A stretch of 54,889 bases of DNA from a virus (Duplodnaviria > Caudoviricetes), in the IMG/VR virus record IMGVR_UViG_3300014656_006066, positions 1-54,889 of that record; one strand, given 5' to 3'. A model generated the notes under the pieces. It made no database searches, was not told the origin of the DNA, and saw only the letters and a list, made by a program, of their open reading frames with translations. This document shows, piece by piece, positions 6,315-54,889 of this stretch (positions are counted from its first letter, which is position 1; each line of letters starts with the position of its first letter). The translations under genes were made by a program, and so were the position numbers.

Positions 6315-6962
6315 ATGCTGGTTCAATCGGCCGAAACGGTCCTAAGGGCGCTCGAAGGGGCGCCCTTTTTGCTCGCCTTTTCTGGCGGCAAGGACTCCGT
6401 AACGATGCTCGACATCGTGGCGCGTGCGCAAATTCCCGGCGCCCGCGTCGTTCACTTCTACCTCGCCCCCGGCATCCCCTCGCGCGAGCGCCTACTCTCG
6501 TATTACGAATCCCGCTATGGCATCAAGATCGATCGCCGCGAGTCCTGGTATGGCGCCACGCTCCGTACCGGCCGGAAGGTGAAACAGGGCGAGACGTTCA
6601 AGGCCCTCCGCGAAGAGTTCGGCGTCAAGTATATCGCCGAGGGCATCAAGCCGACAGACTCGATAATCCGCTGCGCGCTCATCAAGCGGGCGATGGCCGG
6701 AATAAATCACGATATGGGCGCCGTGTACCCGATCTATCGCTGGTACGACTCCGCGGTCATGGCATATATCCGGCAGCATAAACTTCTGTTGCCGCCCGAA
6801 TATCAAGCGAACATGAAACACGACCTCTCGAATGCGACGCTCGAATCGCTCGAGTGGATGAAACATAACTTGCCGGCGGACTATCGCGTGATCCTGGCAA
6901 CGTACCCGAAGCTTGCCGACCGAATGATTCAACGGGAAATGTACGCGGAGGAAGCCCGATGA
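6315..6962 (+). CDS. PAPS-reductase-family PP-loop (adenylating) enzyme
   Basis: AFSGGKDS PP-loop, GIKPTDSIIR, YPIYRWYDSAV; only one Cys, so no Fe-S motif. Confidence 0.85.
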   Translation: MLVQSAETVLRALEGAPFLLAFSGGKDSVTMLDIVARAQIPGARVVHFYLAPGIPSRERLLSYYESRYGIKIDRRESWYGATLRTGRKVKQGETFKALREEFGVKYIAEGIKPTDSIIRCALIKRAMAGINHDMGAVYPIYRWYDSAVMAYIRQHKLLLPPEYQANMKHDLSNATLESLEWMKHNLPADYRVILATYPKLADRMIQREMYAEEAR

Positions 6963-45255: not shown

Positions 45256-45380
45256 CAGCCCCGGAGGGGATTGAACCCTCGACCTGGTGGAACGCCGGAC
45301 CGTGGCTGGCCGTGTCACAGCCCTTTGGACTCGGTTGCCCGGCGCTTGCTCCACCTGCTCTACCACTGAGCTACGGGGCC
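45256..45380 (-). ncRNA. tRNA-shaped RNA with a 60-nt anticodon region
   Basis: Acceptor GGCCCCG/CGGGGCT, D arm GCTC-AGTGGTA-GAGC, stem GGTGG/CCACC, T arm GAGGG-TTCAATC-CCCTC. Confidence 0.8.
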
Positions 45381-45417
45381 AGGGAGACGCGGCCGGGGTG
45401 AGCGGCCGCGCGGGTGG

Positions 45418-45855: not shown

Positions 45856-45967
45856 TGGGAGCGGCGGGATTCGAACCCGCGTTACGGCGCGGCGGGTGGC
45901 TTGCCCTAGGCGGGCGGCGCTGCCGAGCGACGAAAACACCGCGTGCTAACCTCTGCACTACGCTCCC
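45856..45967 (-). ncRNA. tRNA-shaped RNA (Glu-TTC-like) with a 47-nt anticodon loop
   Basis: Acceptor GGGAGCG/CGCTCCC, D arm GTGC-AGAGGTTA-GCAC, stem CGGTG/CGCCG, T arm GCGGG-TTCGAAT-CCCGC. Confidence 0.8.
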
Positions 45968-47453: not shown

Positions 47454-47885
47454 TCATGCCTGTCGCCGATCGGTGATGACGATGCCGTCAAGGTGTTCGT
47501 ACTCGTGCTGGATGCAACGGGCAAGAAGGCCTGCGGCGTCGAGAGAAAAAGGCCGCCCCTTCTTGTCTAGAGCGCGAATAAAAACGCCCGTCGGCCGGCG
47601 AATAGGTACGAACAAGCCAGGGAATGAGAGACATCCTTCTTCGCTTAATTCGGTGTAGTGATGATCGAATCCGATGATCTCTGGATTAACGAATACCCTC
47701 GGCTTGTCTCCGGGGACGTCGGTTACGAACACGCGGAGGGAGTACCCGACCTGAGGCGCGGCAAGCCCGACGCCGTGGTTCTTGCGCATGAGACCGAACA
47801 TCGCGCGTATGAATCCGAACGGAAGGGGGCCTGTAGCAGGCTCGGCTTTCTGCCTGAGCACGATATCGGTGAGTAGTAGGTTCAT
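47454..47885 (-). CDS. def: peptide deformylase
   Basis: GVGLAAPQVG, EGCLS, QHEYEHLDG. Confidence 0.95.
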   Translation of the reverse strand: MNLLLTDIVLRQKAEPATGPLPFGFIRAMFGLMRKNHGVGLAAPQVGYSLRVFVTDVPGDKPRVFVNPEIIGFDHHYTELSEEGCLSFPGLFVPIRRPTGVFIRALDKKGRPFSLDAAGLLARCIQHEYEHLDGIVITDRRQA

Positions 47886-49879: not shown

Positions 49880-50158
49880 ATGAAGACTGAGAAGAACGGC
49901 GACAAGATTGTTTCGGTGAGAATGCCGGAGCAGATGTATTTAACCCTTACGAAGGATGCCGAGGACCAAGAGCGCTCGCTCGCCCAGGAGATTCAATTCG
50001 TCCTTAAACTAGGATGGGCTGCGAGGGCGCGAGAGCTTGATGTCATCGACGCAGCGGGCGATTATATTGATACCGGCCGTGGCGCAAGGGAGCCCCTGCA
50101 CTTAGTAGCAGAAAAGACAGGAGCATATACCCCGAAGGATGACGGCAAGACTGATTAG
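49880..50158 (+). CDS. Arc-family ribbon-helix-helix regulator (repressor position)
   Basis: SVRMPEQMYLTLTKDAEDQERSLAQEIQFVL. Confidence 0.85.
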   Translation: MKTEKNGDKIVSVRMPEQMYLTLTKDAEDQERSLAQEIQFVLKLGWAARARELDVIDAAGDYIDTGRGAREPLHLVAEKTGAYTPKDDGKTD

Positions 50159-50177
50159 CACGTGCCAGCGTCCAATA

Positions 50178-50405
50178 CTAAGCGCTGGCCTTACCGCATA
50201 GCCGCCCTTCGTTCTGGCGACTGAGATAATCCTCAATTTCGCATACCCTGAACCTTACCATGGTCCCATACTTAACGAACGGAATCTCCGGGGTAGCCCT
50301 TAGGCACATAAGCCTAAGGGTTCGCGCCGAGACGCCTATCATGGCCGCGGCCTCGATGGTGTTGATTTCGGTTACGATTGGCGGCAGTCTATTTGATTCT
50401 TTCAT
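50178..50405 (-). CDS. excisionase-like HTH_17 protein
   Basis: EAAAMIGVSARTL...IPFVKYG..VRF...IEDYL. Confidence 0.75.
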   Translation of the reverse strand: MKESNRLPPIVTEINTIEAAAMIGVSARTLRLMCLRATPEIPFVKYGTMVRFRVCEIEDYLSRQNEGRLCGKASA

Positions 50406-50545
50406 ATCGGGTTTCTCCTTAATGCTACCATAGCAGGAGCCACCAGAAATGCAAGAAATGAAATCTATTTCTAGTCGATAGAATTCTATCGCATCGGAAT
50501 ACCGCTTGTAGACAAATGTCTACAAGGGTTTTCGAGCGAATTCGC

Positions 50546-51265
50546 TCAAGTATTTTCGATTATGTAATTCGCCAGGTAGAACGACAGGCCGTTGCGTCCC
50601 TCGACATTCAGTTTCTTATATATGGACGACAACCGATTGTCAACGAACGAGGCGCTATGATCGCCGCTCAAAGCATCGGCGATCGCCTTAGAGTGAGAAT
50701 CAATAATAAAGAGGCGAATAATTTCTTTATCAATTTCGTCGGTTATGCCATTATTATTAAAGTCAAATACTGGTTTCATCTTCGCGCCGAGGGTGTCGTA
50801 GAAGAGGAGATAGATGAAACTAAAGATGATTATGTTGAATGCAAGCGGGGAGCTTATTGACTGAAAGTCTGCACTGTGGAAATAGGCAGAGATAGTGGTT
50901 ATAGTTATAAAAACAATTATCGACCCGACAACCTTTATTTTAAAATTACGGTTTAGATAATTATATGCGTATAAGTTGAGCAAGAAGATTCCGAAGAATA
51001 CATACCCGTATGAATGAACAGGATCGGAAACGATGTTTATCGCCGAGGATGCTGCAAGTGCGATCGGATGAAGAATCTTCAATCGTTCGAGTTGAGGGAG
51101 ATAGCATAGCGCCATCGGGACCGTTAAAATAAAGATCGCTGCGATATTGAAGGCTACTCCAAAACCGAAGCTGCCAGCGATCGCACTGTTGATGAGATTT
51201 TGAAGAATTGCAAACGCACCAACGATGGGGAAGAACAGCGCGATGCGTTCGAAATTCTTCTTCAC
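50546..51265 (-). CDS. multi-TM protein with C-terminal LuxR-type HTH
   Basis: About six TM segments; SKAIADAL...VDNRLSSIYKKLNVEGR. Confidence 0.8.
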   Translation of the reverse strand: MKKNFERIALFFPIVGAFAILQNLINSAIAGSFGFGVAFNIAAIFILTVPMALCYLPQLERLKILHPIALAASSAINIVSDPVHSYGYVFFGIFLLNLYAYNYLNRNFKIKVVGSIIVFITITTISAYFHSADFQSISSPLAFNIIIFSFIYLLFYDTLGAKMKPVFDFNNNGITDEIDKEIIRLFIIDSHSKAIADALSGDHSASFVDNRLSSIYKKLNVEGRNGLSFYLANYIIENT

Positions 51266-51275
51266 CCAGCACCCC

Positions 51276-51845
51276 TTAAAACCAGAAACTTAGCGCCTCC
51301 AGATCCCCCGCGAGCTCCGCGAGTTCAGGCGCCGGGTTATCGGCGAGGGTGTCCATAAGGCTCGCCCTCGTCGCCTCGAAATCCCACGCGCCGGATACAA
51401 GCGCGTTATACTCACCGCTCGCGCGGTCCTTCTCGATATCGGTCCGGTATCCCTGGACCATGTTGAGGGCTAGGAGCGCCATGCCGTGCGCTATCACGCC
51501 CTCGTCGCCGCCCTCGAATCCCGCGATCGACCGTAGCCTGGCGTATACGTCCAGGTCATCGGCCGCCTTGTGGTCGAACTGGAACCGGGCGAACCCGTCC
51601 TTGCTCGCCATGACGTACGTCGCCAGGTGCGCGAGAGCCGTACGCTCGGGATCGACGCATCCCGCTATGAACGGAATCGCCCCGATGATCCGCGCGGTCG
51701 TGGACCCCGATAAGCGCTTCGCCTCCGCGTCCGTCATCCTGAACGCCGCCGCGATCGCGGTCGTTAGCTCCATCCAGGTCGCCAAGAACCCGGATGCCGT
51801 GATGCCCTTACCCTGCGCCTTGGGCGCTACCATTGTGTCACTCAT
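51276..51845 (-). CDS. hypothetical helical protein
   Basis: 189 aa, co-oriented with LuxR and 10 bp from it. Confidence 0.7.
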   Translation of the reverse strand: MSDTMVAPKAQGKGITASGFLATWMELTTAIAAAFRMTDAEAKRLSGSTTARIIGAIPFIAGCVDPERTALAHLATYVMASKDGFARFQFDHKAADDLDVYARLRSIAGFEGGDEGVIAHGMALLALNMVQGYRTDIEKDRASGEYNALVSGAWDFEATRASLMDTLADNPAPELAELAGDLEALSFWF

Positions 51846-51894
51846 GCCCGAGAGGGTAGCACCTCGATTGTCTAAACGACAATCAATAATTCGA

Positions 51895-51931
51895 CTACGT
51901 AGATACTACGTAGAAAAATGGGTCTTGTCAA
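51895..51931 (-). promoter_or_regulatory. promoter overlapped by two CTACGTAG palindromes
   Basis: TTGACA-17-TAGTAT; CTACGTAG at 51895 and 51906. Confidence 0.65.
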
Positions 51932-51934
51932 GGC

Positions 51935-51970
51935 AAAAAAAAAGAGTTCGCCCCTTGAAAGGACGAACTC
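51935..51970 (-). terminator. intrinsic terminator
   Basis: GAGTTCGTCC..GGGCGAACTC followed by T9. Confidence 0.85.
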
Positions 51971-51997
51971 AATTGAAAACTGTCATATATACGCTAG

Positions 51998-52192
51998 TTA
52001 ATCAGTATCGGGCCACTCCTTGGTCTGGCTGGGCGATTTTACAATGATAATCTTCTCGCCCTCCTCATATATATCAACCCATGGCTCATCTTTGTCAAGC
52101 TTTCTTTTTTTAAGCATCTTCATCGCCAGGCCAAGGGACCAGGAGGTTCCGCCGCCGACGGGCGTCAGTCTTTTATGGTCTGTCAACTCCAA
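51998..52192 (-). CDS. AbrB/MazE-like small regulator
   Basis: KRLTPVGGGTSWSLGL...VDIYEEGEKIIIVK; GGAGGAGG RBS. Confidence 0.65.
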   Translation of the reverse strand: MELTDHKRLTPVGGGTSWSLGLAMKMLKKRKLDKDEPWVDIYEEGEKIIIVKSPSQTKEWPDTD

Positions 52193-52408
52193 AGCCCCTC
52201 CTCCGGGCGCGTTCTACTATATAACTACGTAGAAAGTACGTAAAGTATATGTAGGCGCGGCGCAACCTGTCAAGTAAAAAATCTACGTAGATATTATCCG
52301 GGATTATGGGGCATGGCAAGGGAAGAAATGGGAGGGGGGGGGCGGATAATGTGGACGAGGGAAAGAAGCAGGTTTACAATAAGAAATCTGAAATTCTAAG
52401 GAGAATAT

Positions 52409-53179
52409 ATGAAAAAGTCAATGAAATATTTTGTCTTCGGCTTACTGGGCCTTGGGGTCATCGGGGCTATCATTGAGAATGGATTCGGTGTTGCCCTTGT
52501 TCTTGCAGCGATAGTGTTGGTTGTGTTTATTGTCATTAAGCTACGAAATTTGCCGCAATCGGCATCCCCCGGAATGTCGCTTCCTGATAAAGATTTAGAA
52601 AAAGATGATTTCATCGACTGGGGCGATGCGAATCAATACCACGTTCTCAATGAAAATGTATCCATCACCTATCAAAACCAAAAAGGGCAAGTATCGGAGA
52701 GGAATATCACGATCGCAAACGTCCTACGGACAGGCGACGGGCAGCTTCTCGTTCATGCTCATTGCCACCTCCGGAATGCAAACCGTACCTTTTACGCGAG
52801 CCGGATCCAGAAGATGGAACGGGAGGGCCAGGAGGTTGATGTCGAATCATTCTTGAACGCCCTTATAGAAAACTCACCCGATCGTGTTTACGAGCGAATC
52901 GAAGAAAATCGCGAGGAAGAATTATTAGCACTCATGTATATCGCAAAGCTAGACGGGCGGCTAACGAAAAACGAGAGAGAAATCCTGGGTGTATATTTCG
53001 GCGTTGATCCTGATATTTTCCCATCTTTCGATATGACGGCCGCGACATATAAAAAGGTTATAAAAACAATTAATGCTTGGGATGAAGAAAAAAAGGCACC
53101 GCTTCGCGCTGCAATGATTCAGCTTATGGGGAAGAAGCCGGACGACATGAAAAAGGCGACGGTTGGAATGCTTAGGTAG
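52409..53179 (+). CDS. membrane-anchored WYL + TerB-like protein
   Basis: Two TMs; ITYQNQKGQVSER...HCHLRNANRTFYASRI; YIAKLDGRLTKNEREI. Confidence 0.75.
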   Translation: MKKSMKYFVFGLLGLGVIGAIIENGFGVALVLAAIVLVVFIVIKLRNLPQSASPGMSLPDKDLEKDDFIDWGDANQYHVLNENVSITYQNQKGQVSERNITIANVLRTGDGQLLVHAHCHLRNANRTFYASRIQKMEREGQEVDVESFLNALIENSPDRVYERIEENREEELLALMYIAKLDGRLTKNEREILGVYFGVDPDIFPSFDMTAATYKKVIKTINAWDEEKKAPLRAAMIQLMGKKPDDMKKATVGMLR

Positions 53180-53192
53180 AATAATATAATTA

Positions 53193-53522
53193 CTATATTT
53201 GCTCAACCTGCGAGCGGAATAAGGCTATCAGTGCAATGATTATAGCAACCACGGCCAAGGCAGTGTTCGTAATACTTAGATAGAAGTTGGTTCGTTCGCT
53301 TTGTTTTGTTGCCCGAAGCTCAAGTTCACCAATTATCATCGCGGCGATCTCCCGATCCTCGGCAGCTCTTGGCTTGTTATGAAGACTCTTCCCGCCTAAG
53401 ATCGAGAGATAATGTCGTAACTCTTTTGTATTGGCCAACCATATTTTAGAAAACCAACCTGGAAGTTCTTCAGTCCTTGAAGCCTCTTCGTCTTCTTCAT
53501 AGTGAGGATTAACATCTTTCAT
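53193..53522 (-). CDS. C-terminal TM protein
   Basis: GGAGG RBS; hydrophobic C-terminus. Confidence 0.6.
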   Translation of the reverse strand: MKDVNPHYEEDEEASRTEELPGWFSKIWLANTKELRHYLSILGGKSLHNKPRAAEDREIAAMIIGELELRATKQSERTNFYLSITNTALAVVAIIIALIALFRSQVEQI

Positions 53523-53662
53523 TATTAGCCTCCGGTTATTTCAAAACAATCATCCCTAATGACTGTCGCCAAATCGCCAAGCCAATAGGCATTATAACTG
53601 ATCGCACGTTGATTCGGTGGAAAATAATCCAAGACTCCAGGCTCGCCGCATCCGCGATTCCG

Positions 53663-54889
53663 CTACCGCTCCTCAATCCTCCCGAGGATATCCCGGACTG
53701 CCAGCGCTGATTCGTGCCGTTCCTCGATGGTCAGGTGCGTATAATGATCGGTCATTTTCGCGGACTTATGGCGGGCGAGCTTCTGCGCGAGATCCTTGTC
53801 CGTCGCGGCGCGGATATGGGTAACGTACCAATGCCGCCAGGCGTGGAACGTGAGGCCGCGGGCGACGCGCTCCTCGTCCGAGATCCCGAGCGCGGTTTTG
53901 ATTGCGCTATTCGATAGCAGCTCCGCTTCCTTTTTCTGGATATGCGTGCCGTGCATCTTCCCCTCGAATAGCCAACCCTCTCGCCAGCGGCTCGACTCAT
54001 AAAACTTCTGCAACTCCTGCCCGAGCGAGAACGGTAGTACCGCCTCGCCGACGGCGCCTTTTTTTGCTTGTTCAACGATCGAGAACGTGTAGTATTCGAC
54101 CTTCCCGTCGGGGGTATCGAACGACTCGAGGGATAGGTATTCGGGACGAGTCGCGCACACCTCGGAGACGCGGAGCCCCGCGAACGCCGCGAGCTGTATG
54201 AGCAGGCGATCCCGTTGCGGCAAGGCTTCAAGCTGGAACACGCGGGCCGCCTCGGCGACCGACAGAATGTCGCGCTCGGTGTCTTCAACAGGGACGTATG
54301 AAACGAGCTTCGCAGGGCTTTTATCCGGCGCCCCGGCTTGATGCCAGAAATCATTCACCGGAACGAACACGGCTTTAATGGCCGAATTCATGGTCGAGTC
54401 CGCTATCCCTTTCGCCTCGAGGTAGGCCTTGTACTCGTTCAAGAGCTTCGGGGTTACTTGCCCGATGCCCATGCCGGCGCGCTTGTGCGCCTCGAGGAAT
54501 GGCTTGAAATGATTCTTAACATTCTTGCGATTGTTGTAGAGGTATTCGCTTGAAAGCCCCGTCTTCTTGCCGCGGCGATCCCGAGCGTAGCGCTTGGAAT
54601 ACTCGCTGCCCTCGAGCCAGAAGGATTCAAGGTAGGGAATAAGCGCCGCCCCAGCCGTAGGGGTATGATTCTCTCGCCAGAGGTCTACGATTGCCCTGGC
54701 GTCGCCCTTCTTGCAGGGGTCCAGGTCTCCCTTGCTAGGGTCTTCAACTTCAGCGAGTAAGCGCCCTACTGAGGAGCGATTTATATACTTCCCGGACGGC
54801 GGAACGGTGGAATCCCAGAACTCGACGTACCACATTCGGCCATTTTTTGCGCCGTCTGGACGCCGGAATAGGATGAACGGCTCTCTCAT
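53663..54889 (-). CDS. int: tyrosine integrase
   Basis: GLRVSE, FHAWRH, ARH, HY catalytic set. Confidence 0.93.
   Translation of the reverse strand: MREPFILFRRPDGAKNGRMWYVEFWDSTVPPSGKYINRSSVGRLLAEVEDPSKGDLDPCKKGDARAIVDLWRENHTPTAGAALIPYLESFWLEGSEYSKRYARDRRGKKTGLSSEYLYNNRKNVKNHFKPFLEAHKRAGMGIGQVTPKLLNEYKAYLEAKGIADSTMNSAIKAVFVPVNDFWHQAGAPDKSPAKLVSYVPVEDTERDILSVAEAARVFQLEALPQRDRLLIQLAAFAGLRVSEVCATRPEYLSLESFDTPDGKVEYYTFSIVEQAKKGAVGEAVLPFSLGQELQKFYESSRWREGWLFEGKMHGTHIQKKEAELLSNSAIKTALGISDEERVARGLTFHAWRHWYVTHIRAATDKDLAQKLARHKSAKMTDHYTHLTIEERHESALAVRDILGRIEER

Follow-up and report, generated by a model that had tools for sequence, protein, structure and literature searches.

In the engineered tRNA (transfer RNA) scaffold, a foreign structured RNA replaces the anticodon loop on an extended stem, and the acceptor, D and T arms are left intact. 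The analysis presented here concerns a gene of the same design, termed tRNA1, which is a complete tRNA-shaped body of 125 nt (acceptor, D arm, anticodon stem, variable loop and T arm) on the minus strand at 45256..45380 of the IMG/VR provirus record IMGVR_UViG_3300014656_006066 (Duplodnaviria; Caudoviricetes). The window, meaning the whole stretch of DNA that was analyzed, is this complete record of 54,889 bp. tRNA1 differs from the engineered scaffold in that it is natural, in that the arrangement is met on many tRNA bodies, and in that one particular conserved module is carried. It is very probably a carrier whose anticodon arm is capped by this module, which would mean that nature repeatedly uses the RNA engineers' trick of putting a functional RNA in place of the tRNA anticodon loop.

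Two natural systems are comparable in part. Phage T4 species 1 and 2 RNAs (RNAC and RNAD) are stable small non-tRNA RNAs encoded inside the T4 tRNA cluster, and we know of no function for them. The module described here is likewise a small RNA in phage tRNA arrays, but by blastn it is absent from 50,697 GenBank phage records, as well as from 72,556 plasmids and from E. coli genomes. The bacterial Y-RNA-like RNA YrlA joins a tRNA-like domain to a stem that binds Rsr/Ro, and such RNAs are present in some phages too. tRNA1 resembles YrlA in having a tRNA-like part and a separate, predicted binding module; however, YrlA RNA has its ends at the binding stem and not at the acceptor, and no Rfam Y RNA family matched here.

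Inserts in tRNA genes of phages have also been described. According to the available part of PMC6784885, Lak megaphages carry short conserved 'enigmatic' inserts in tRNA anticodon loops, with no known splicing route, and these genes yield a tRNA type and an anticodon upon removal of the insert. In contrast, tRNA1 keeps no anticodon loop, and its insert is a module that lives mostly outside tRNAs; it offers a concrete, testable case for the recurring 'tRNAs with enigmatic inserts' of phage genomes. Archaeal bulge-helix-bulge (BHB) introns and bacterial group I introns occupy the same position in the anticodon arm as the tRNA1 insert, which differs from them in having no BHB geometry, no endonuclease encoded in the record, and a size of 53 nt compared to the more than 200 nt of group I introns.

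Additionally, the module invites comparison with the double T-loop, a pattern written as AGNNA ... UGNNA with six invariant residues, by which T-box Stem I, RNase P and the L1 stalk of the ribosome stack on the elbow of tRNA (PMC3664808 and PMC4810234, as far as their available text goes). The available text of PMC4810234 also expects more double T-loop examples to turn up.

The tRNA1 body and its anticodon arm

The Rfam tRNA model RF00005 covers 45256-45380 end to end (model positions 1-71) with 50.3 bits and an E value of 7.2e-08, the gathering score being 29. The acceptor stem has 7 bp, including a G1-U72 wobble, and is followed by U8-A9, a D arm (GCUC/GAGC) with GG in its loop, an anticodon stem (GGUGG/CCACC), the variable loop AGGUC and the T arm GAGGG-UUCAAUC-CCCUC. 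The discriminator is G, and CCA is not encoded. Between the halves of the anticodon stem, the RF00005 alignment places 60 nt (45291..45350, minus strand) instead of the 7 nt of the model, which is 53 nt beyond a normal loop. The first-pass annotation, made from the sequence alone, had described a textbook tRNA body (acceptor, U8-A9, D arm with GG, variable loop, T arm) with an insert replacing the anticodon loop, no U33, no encoded CCA, and three nested helices (CGCCGG/CCGGCG, ACCG/CGGU and GGCUG/CAGCC). The body lies on the minus strand at the coordinates it had given, the gene ends with the discriminator G, and all three helices are found both in the sequence and in the minimum-free-energy (MFE) fold.

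In this fold, the 60-nt stretch lengthens the anticodon stem into an irregular helix of about 18 bp that the module caps. Its lower part, P0, is formed by GCGCCGG (45339..45345, minus strand) and CCGGCGU (45292..45298, minus strand). Two bulges, GCAA and GCA, lie on the 5' strand of the arm, 7 bp apart; along 45339-45350 and 45336-45338, both can also be read as GCAA. Flanks resembling the arm of the window, GGGCAACCGA ... ACGGUCC, recur in four other loci (L230, L340, L375 and L333), and across the family the first interruption beneath P1 is biased toward the 5' strand. As a single sequence the stretch only modestly beats shuffled sequences (z -2.29; 5 of 200 shuffles fold equally well). The comparative evidence is decisive for the structure, as ACCG/CGGU (P1) and GGCUG/CAGCC (P2) are covarying helices of a family with more than 200 contexts.

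A decoding tRNA was taken to have a 7-nt anticodon loop with U33 and a purine at position 37, on a 5-bp stem. Position 33 is G in all eight ways of taking seven loop letters from the ends of the insert, and tRNA1 cannot decode. With default settings ARAGORN called no tRNA in the window, and with introns allowed it returned an implausible 'Ala(ggc)' with a 51-nt intron. The string GUCCAAA was considered as a Trp-like anticodon loop and was treated as chance, given that about 1 in 8 7-mers fit N-U-NNN-R-N and that its flanks are unpaired. Altogether, tRNA1 is most likely neither a decoding tRNA nor a decayed one, but a tRNA-shaped carrier RNA.

The module core, delimited by our own covariance model R1 and by exact 27-mer matches, consists of 31 nt from G1 to C31 (45302..45332, minus strand). 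R1 scores 45290-45344 over its full length with 65.4 bits (E 1.3e-16). P1 is formed by ACC (45333..45335), which runs on into core G1, and GGU (45299..45301), both strands being defined by family covariation. The invariant 5' junction GAGUCCAAAG (core 1-10, 45323..45332) contains a candidate first T-loop, A2-G3-N-N-(N)-A7. It is followed by the 5' strand of P2, GGCUG (core 11-15, 45318..45322), with compensatory changes in all five pairs, the 9-nt P2 loop UGACACGGC (core 16-24, 45309..45317), in which U16-G17-N-N-A20 is a candidate second T-loop, and the covarying 3' strand of P2, CAGCC (core 25-29, 45304..45308), all on the minus strand. The family consensus reads as a variable P1, GAGUCCAAAG, a 5-bp P2, the loop UGNNANGGC, P2', AC and P1', and the core in the window is, letter for letter, the commonest variant of the family.

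The module is present once in the window, where the runner-up of R1 reaches only 11.3 bits, and no second copy or complement of 11 nt or more, nor an antisense target, was found there. When contigs from the DNA sequencing runs were mapped to the region, depth over the middle part of the insert (about 45300-45334) was six times that of the flanks (65 and 75 versus 11 and 9.5). Several other contigs of 186-2360 nt carry this middle part, as a core of 30-33 nt, each with different flanks. A joined, insert-free form was not among the contigs of the DNA runs mapped to the region.

Spread, covariation and settings of the module family

A search for the exact 27-mer of the core gave a single match in each of 13 genome contigs, which belong to 13 differently named lineages, and likewise in each of 56 viral contigs. 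The labels of the metagenome-assembled genomes (MAGs) concerned are Thermodesulfovibrionales, Bacillota, Dormiibacterota, Actinomycetes, Chthoniobacterales, Blastocatellia, Planctomycetota, Brocadiia, Phycisphaerales, Bryobacteraceae, Rhodopila, Gemmatimonadaceae and 'uncultured archaeon'. Two 17-mer anchors led to 115 and 69 viral loci, and a degenerate pattern, in which the ten P2 letters and three loop letters were free and the junction, U16, G17, A20, G22-C24 and A30-C31 were held fixed, gave at least 120 matches in metagenome contigs. After deduplication, at least 207 distinct contexts were obtained from viral, metagenome and MAG contigs, the IMG/VR and metagenome contigs being overlapping collections. 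Every pattern scan found one module copy per contig, and 70 copies showed 62 different flanks, which pair with one another. Thus, a nearly identical 31-nt unit is present in more than 200 contexts of uncultured phages and prophages, with hosts that include Bacillota, Actinomycetes, Planctomycetota and Acidobacteriota. A common phage function may have been overlooked, as the module is non-coding and lives in environmental phages.

Variation was assessed where the searches left letters free. In the 69-locus set, whose junction was free, one or two junction letters are changed in 7 of about 64 real members. In the 115 loci with core 18-31 free, only positions 18, 19 and 21 commonly vary, position 21 being C, U or A. 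Among the listed matches of the degenerate pattern, P2 is fully paired (5/5) in 111 of 115, even though its ten letters were free; two of the four exceptions look like chance matches (L369 and L371), the others being L360 and L407.

The absence of covariation among homologues of the insert had been named beforehand as a ground for giving up the initial proposal of a tRNA-borne structured RNA. Both helices covary strongly. In P2, compensatory changes were counted for the five pairs in 14, 29, 38, 30 and 9 of 116 sequences, 97.8% of cells are paired, none of 500 shuffles reaches the covariation score, and slid controls pair at 30-38%. In P1, double-sided changes occur at the three core-adjacent pairs in 33, 59 and 60 of 122 sequences; 92.6% of cells are paired compared to 79.5% in shuffles, none of 500 shuffles matches the covariation score, and slid controls are paired at 26-39%. 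The two core-adjacent P1 pairs contain 29 G-U versus 1 A-C, which indicates that the RNA is read on the tRNA strand, and neighboring tRNA genes lie on the strand of the module in 50 of 51 cases. Sequence comparison identifies the module as a family of structured RNAs under selection, with the tRNA strand as the sense strand. The architecture foreseen in the first-pass annotation has therefore held up, in that the core of the insert belongs to a conserved family and the same module is seen on many tRNA-shaped bodies. The functions that this annotation had suggested for the insert (aptamer, antisense RNA, or a decoy for tRNA-sensing or tRNA-cleaving defences) are candidates only.

In most copies the module sits at the tip of an irregular stem (median 15 bp), with P1 spanning 3-5 bp in 124 of 207 contexts and often bordered by a 2-5-nt bulge on its 5' side. 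A T-rich tail follows in just 7 of the 207 contexts, so the module stems are not terminators. No neighboring gene is shared, and Pfam searches on 85 flanking open reading frames (ORFs) gave heterogeneous results; apparently conserved clusters of neighboring proteins were artefacts from translating the module RNA itself. The orientation of flanking genes falls into classes of 17, 15, 13 and 10 among 61 loci, and in 13 of the 61 both flanking genes point the opposite way. Heterogeneous flanking genes and mixed orientation suggest that many copies are separate small RNA genes.

A tRNA-shaped body surrounds the module in about 1 context in 8 (about 12%). A T arm with an enclosing acceptor stem was found in 19 of 119 viral and genome contexts, 12 of these with all 7/7 acceptor pairs, and a T arm with a 7/7 acceptor stem in 13 of 107 metagenome contexts, among the matches listed. 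At least 12 and at least 13 differently sequenced bodies are represented in the two sets, which overlap. In four loci (L128, L162, L185 and L268) the D and T arms are canonical, as they are in tRNA1, with different acceptor sequences; T-arm sequences differ too, and CCA is encoded in L128 and L185. The tRNA-borne arm ranges in length from about 10 to about 25 bp. When the hairpin is set aside, none of the four copies inspected (the window, L128, L162 and L185) is left with a 7-nt anticodon loop containing U33. Grafting onto tRNA bodies is thus recurrent, which makes the module, and not the body, the fixed element.

Other arrangements were also observed. In L057, L083, L092 and L103 the module hairpin starts a few nucleotides past the 3' end of the preceding tRNA. 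In L061, L083, L092 and L103 (about 1478-1624 in L083) a hairpin resembling a T arm and a short closure resembling an acceptor come after the module hairpin, with no D arm; this structure looks like a reduced tRNA-like carrier among ordinary array tRNA genes. L055 and L098 (also L111 and L117) share similarity over about 60 nt on either side of the module, with a hairpin upstream and a C-rich/G-rich hairpin downstream, and in phages of the L055 and L098 type the module may be one domain of a larger RNA.

None of the Rfam 15 families besides tRNA matches the region at E values up to 10. For the module in 40 related loci, no Rfam family matched at its gathering score, the sole spanning match being the tRNA model on L070. 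The module sequence was not found in the literature searched. A catalogue of 10,006 candidate RNAs from IMG/VR, described in the available part of PMC10690425, may include the module; it is absent from the six supplement files of that paper that were searched, three further files lying outside the search. The module is apparently a widespread, undescribed phage RNA family.

Predicted role and rival explanations

tRNA1 is most likely a non-decoding carrier for a module that is predicted to act in trans. It would be transcribed together with the replication genes on the minus strand, as no promoter-like site or terminator lies within the tRNA1 region, and host tRNA-processing enzymes (RNase P and a 3' end-processing nuclease) would cut it out. 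The tRNA body would supply processing and stability, and the module would act on a partner identical across bacterial phyla. Loops identical in phages of unrelated hosts point to a partner common to all bacteria. The likeliest candidate would be tRNA itself, its elbow docked by a double T-loop platform. As a whole, the combination of a carrier RNA, a conserved trans-acting module and tRNA as the likeliest partner is put forward tentatively.

The double T-loop lead draws on an analogy with T-box Stem I, the RNase P J11/12-J12/13 module and the 23S L1 stalk, which like the module have an AG..A followed by a UG..A with six invariant key letters. UGNNA is exact in the module (U16-G17-N-N-A20), and the variable letters 18 and 19 are its two N, whereas AG..A (A2-G3..A7) fits only when C6 is counted as an extra residue, a feature that the L1 stalk has too, and is conserved at its N letters. 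In the T-box consensus of Rfam, a 5' bulge of 8 nt that ends in AGAGA is followed by a 6-bp helix and an 11-nt loop ending in UGaaA, without any 3' bulge. The module shares with T-box Stem I the order of a 5' bulge, a short helix and an apical loop with almost no 3' bulge, but has a helix of 5 instead of 6 bp, a loop of 9 instead of 11 nt and a 5' junction of 10 instead of 8 nt. It also lacks the specifier loop, K-turn and antiterminator of T-boxes, and no Rfam T-box or RNase P family matched. Like the module, double T-loop systems are tied to tRNA or tRNA genes, and a universal target would explain conservation across hosts.

Several observations weigh against this explanation. Besides the extra residue that the first pentamer requires, U4, C5 and C6, which would be N letters, are as conserved as the key letters, which a bare T-loop would not predict. 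The pentamers come after their helices in the module and before them in T-box Stem I, so that the register differs, and the residues that would form the stacking platform sit within helices. A six-letter pattern match made post hoc is weak evidence. Binding to tRNA would lack anticodon specificity, as most copies are plain hairpins without a specifier-like loop. Each search fixed part of the core, so the apparent invariance is partly by design. Separate tRNA genes lie within 400 nt of the module in 19 of 70 loci, several of them inside large phage tRNA arrays; this speaks for a link with tRNA, but as a raw count without a control comparison. Furthermore, the sequencing runs listed as containing the stretch are DNA runs, with no RNA run among them. 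Docking on the tRNA elbow as the mechanism of the module is thus a doubtful proposition, made by analogy. The module might possibly represent a fourth natural class, next to the L1 stalk, RNase P and T-box leaders, that grips the tRNA elbow by interdigitated T-loops; phages of many bacterial phyla would produce it on hairpins or tRNA bodies and use it to capture, shield or titrate tRNAs during infection, which we also consider rather unlikely. If true, phages would manipulate the tRNA pool by a shape-recognizing RNA, a new layer of phage-host conflict, and could counter tRNA-targeting defences or blunt the sensing of uncharged tRNA. With P1, the module measures about 40 nt, which is small enough for direct biochemistry and structural work.

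Two of the rival explanations would leave tRNA1 a broken or interrupted tRNA gene. If it were an intron-bearing gene spliced to a working tRNA, this would suit its intact tRNA body, the unexplained introns in anticodon loops of Lak phage tRNAs (PMC6784885, available part), and the short inserts of three other loci (L007, L005 and L006) that leave a good loop. Yet U33 is unobtainable from any seven end letters of the insert, and in place of the two 3-nt bulges on opposite strands, 4 bp apart, that define a BHB, the GCAA and GCA bulges share the 5' strand and are separated by 7 bp. The splicing endonuclease (PF01974) is absent from the 54.9-kb record, in a search that covered this record and detected the control in 4 archaea, and the phage looks bacterial, with a peptide deformylase and an SLT transglycosylase. 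As the first-pass annotation had held, the insert is too short for a group I intron, whose P3-P9 core alone takes about 200 nt, and no Rfam intron family matched at E values up to 10. The module also occurs mostly outside tRNAs, and splicing is very improbable. Even more so is a selfish hairpin repeat or decay product that disrupts the tRNA gene and has no function for the phage. Such an origin would agree with the unrelated and unconserved insert in the adjoining gene tRNA2; a mobile repeat, however, would keep its own arms, and here the arms differ in nearly every copy and the loops are fixed. Pairing has been maintained through compensatory change, there is a single copy per contig, the rest of tRNA1 is intact by its RF00005 score, and the same grafting recurs on different tRNA bodies.

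The remaining rivals accept the module as a functional RNA and assign it another activity. If the module were a small self-cleaving ribozyme or a processing signal, at which tRNA arrays and polycistronic phage transcripts are cut, this would be in keeping with an invariant core between variable helices, with module stems that start just after a tRNA 3' end (the four loci named above), and with the small theta ribozymes that adjoin phage tRNA genes (PMC10879173, available part). This proposal is quite improbable, as no hammerhead, twister, pistol, hatchet or HDV-like family matched (the region at E values up to 10; 40 related loci at gathering score), an HDV-like topology would need an invariant upstream strand and the flanks vary, and cleavage within the anticodon arm would ruin the carrier. 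To our knowledge, about 40 nt is also below every natural self-cleaving class. An aptamer for a universal bacterial small molecule, such as a nucleotide second messenger or cofactor, acting as a sponge on a stable scaffold or as a sensor, is unlikely. The small size of the module, its covarying helices of variable sequence and its invariant letters in junction and loop are what small riboswitch aptamers typically show, a pseudoknot of G3-U4-C5 with G22-G23-C24 is possible from the sequence, a universal ligand would account for identical loops across hosts, and stable scaffolds would suit a stoichiometric sponge. However, no riboswitch family matched at E values up to 10, the module is not consistently placed ahead of genes (the orientation classes given above), the scarcity of T-rich tails leaves no terminator-type expression platform, and the context, which lacks a conserved neighboring gene, suggests no ligand. 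A role as decoy or binding site for some conserved protein, be it an enzyme that cleaves or modifies tRNA, a ribosomal protein or an RNA-processing enzyme, also seems unlikely to us, although the single-stranded letters of the module are near-invariant, about 12% of contexts have it at the anticodon end of a tRNA body, and it is associated with phage tRNA arrays. In the set of 119 contexts, 100 copies are plain hairpins and not tRNA bodies, the varying arm length gives no fixed geometry relative to the tRNA body, no gene for a partner protein is linked, and similarity to the E. coli rRNA operon is not above that of shuffles.

Three further candidates were rejected. A mobile palindromic repeat (REP/MITE-like) was set aside on the 62 distinct flanks among 70 copies and the one copy per contig, and an RNA anti-CRISPR or solitary repeat mimic on the single match, with no arrays, in all 13 genome and 56 viral loci; the contigs of 186-2360 nt that share the core in the sequencing runs also lack the size of repeat-spacer units. 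For a mimic or antisense of rRNA, tested on the E. coli rRNA operon, the best sense score of 20 was reached by 76 of 300 shuffles and the best antisense score of 16 by 267 of 300.

Genomic setting and other insert-bearing tRNAs

The gene content of the window is that of a phage with a contractile tail, and includes large terminase, portal, head protease, major head protein, tail sheath, tape measure and baseplate genes; a replication block is present as well, and an integrase lies at the record end. A bacterial host is indicated by the peptide deformylase (47454-47885), the SLT transglycosylase and the Shine-Dalgarno sequences. A PAPS-reductase-like protein is encoded at 6315-6962. G+C falls from about 0.60 to 0.48-0.51 across 50001-54889, a part that contains a WYL-domain protein (52409-53179) and a tyrosine integrase (53663-54889) that begins exactly where the record ends. 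The best terminase matches in GenBank phages have less than 34% identity, and a 3-kb region had no blastn match in GenBank phages. Close relatives of the neighboring proteins were absent from viral contigs and from genome contigs; for a 200-aa neighboring protein, five homologues were found, one of them with 87% identity. Six distant loci in Treponema and other MAGs had no Rfam matches. Three DNA runs, from groundwater and other metagenomes, contain the stretch.

Both tRNA1 and tRNA2 occupy intergenic gaps of the minus-strand replication operon, with the next start codon 25-45 nt beyond each of them and neither promoter-like nor terminator-like sites close by; past tRNA1, a Shine-Dalgarno sequence and ATG follow at 25 nt. 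Between the stop codon of a 141-aa ORF and the 5' end of tRNA1 lies a GC-rich hairpin, GCGCGGCCG ... CGGCCGCG (45381-45417, minus strand), without a T run.

tRNA2, located 476 nt upstream of tRNA1 at 45856..45967 on the minus strand, is a Glu-like tRNA-shaped gene (RF00005, 54.9 bits) with a C-rich insert of about 40 nt after UUUUCG. This insert has no convincing fold (z -1.65), and its interpretation as a divergent member of the module family was discarded because R1 did not match it. A 20-mer of the insert had a lone match among genome contigs, by chance, in a coding region of Pseudarthrobacter.

Searches for similar genes were largely unproductive. A pattern built on the insert-stem junction had no viral matches and 32 genome matches, all by chance in coding sequence, and a pattern for long-gapped tRNAs gave 12 loci that were mostly adjacent array tRNAs rather than gapped genes. 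At 1492-1605 of L007, a viral contig of 44.8 kb, the tRNA model matches 114 nt with 58.1 bits and CCA is encoded; taking out a 42-nt insert near the start of the loop leaves a Trp-type loop, CUCCAAA. L007 is possibly a true intron-bearing phage tRNA, unrelated to the module. L005 (932-1034) and L006 (945-1058) are tRNA-Thr(UGU)-like genes in tRNA arrays with inserts of 31 and 42 nt at the canonical position 37/38, which may be eukaryote-type introns. L008, with equal-scoring array tRNAs, comes from a contig labelled as a giant-virus MAG. Finally, a c-di-AMP riboswitch (2000-2130 of L426, 93.3 bits) was found near a T-box leader, in the same Bacillota MAG that carries a module-bearing prophage.

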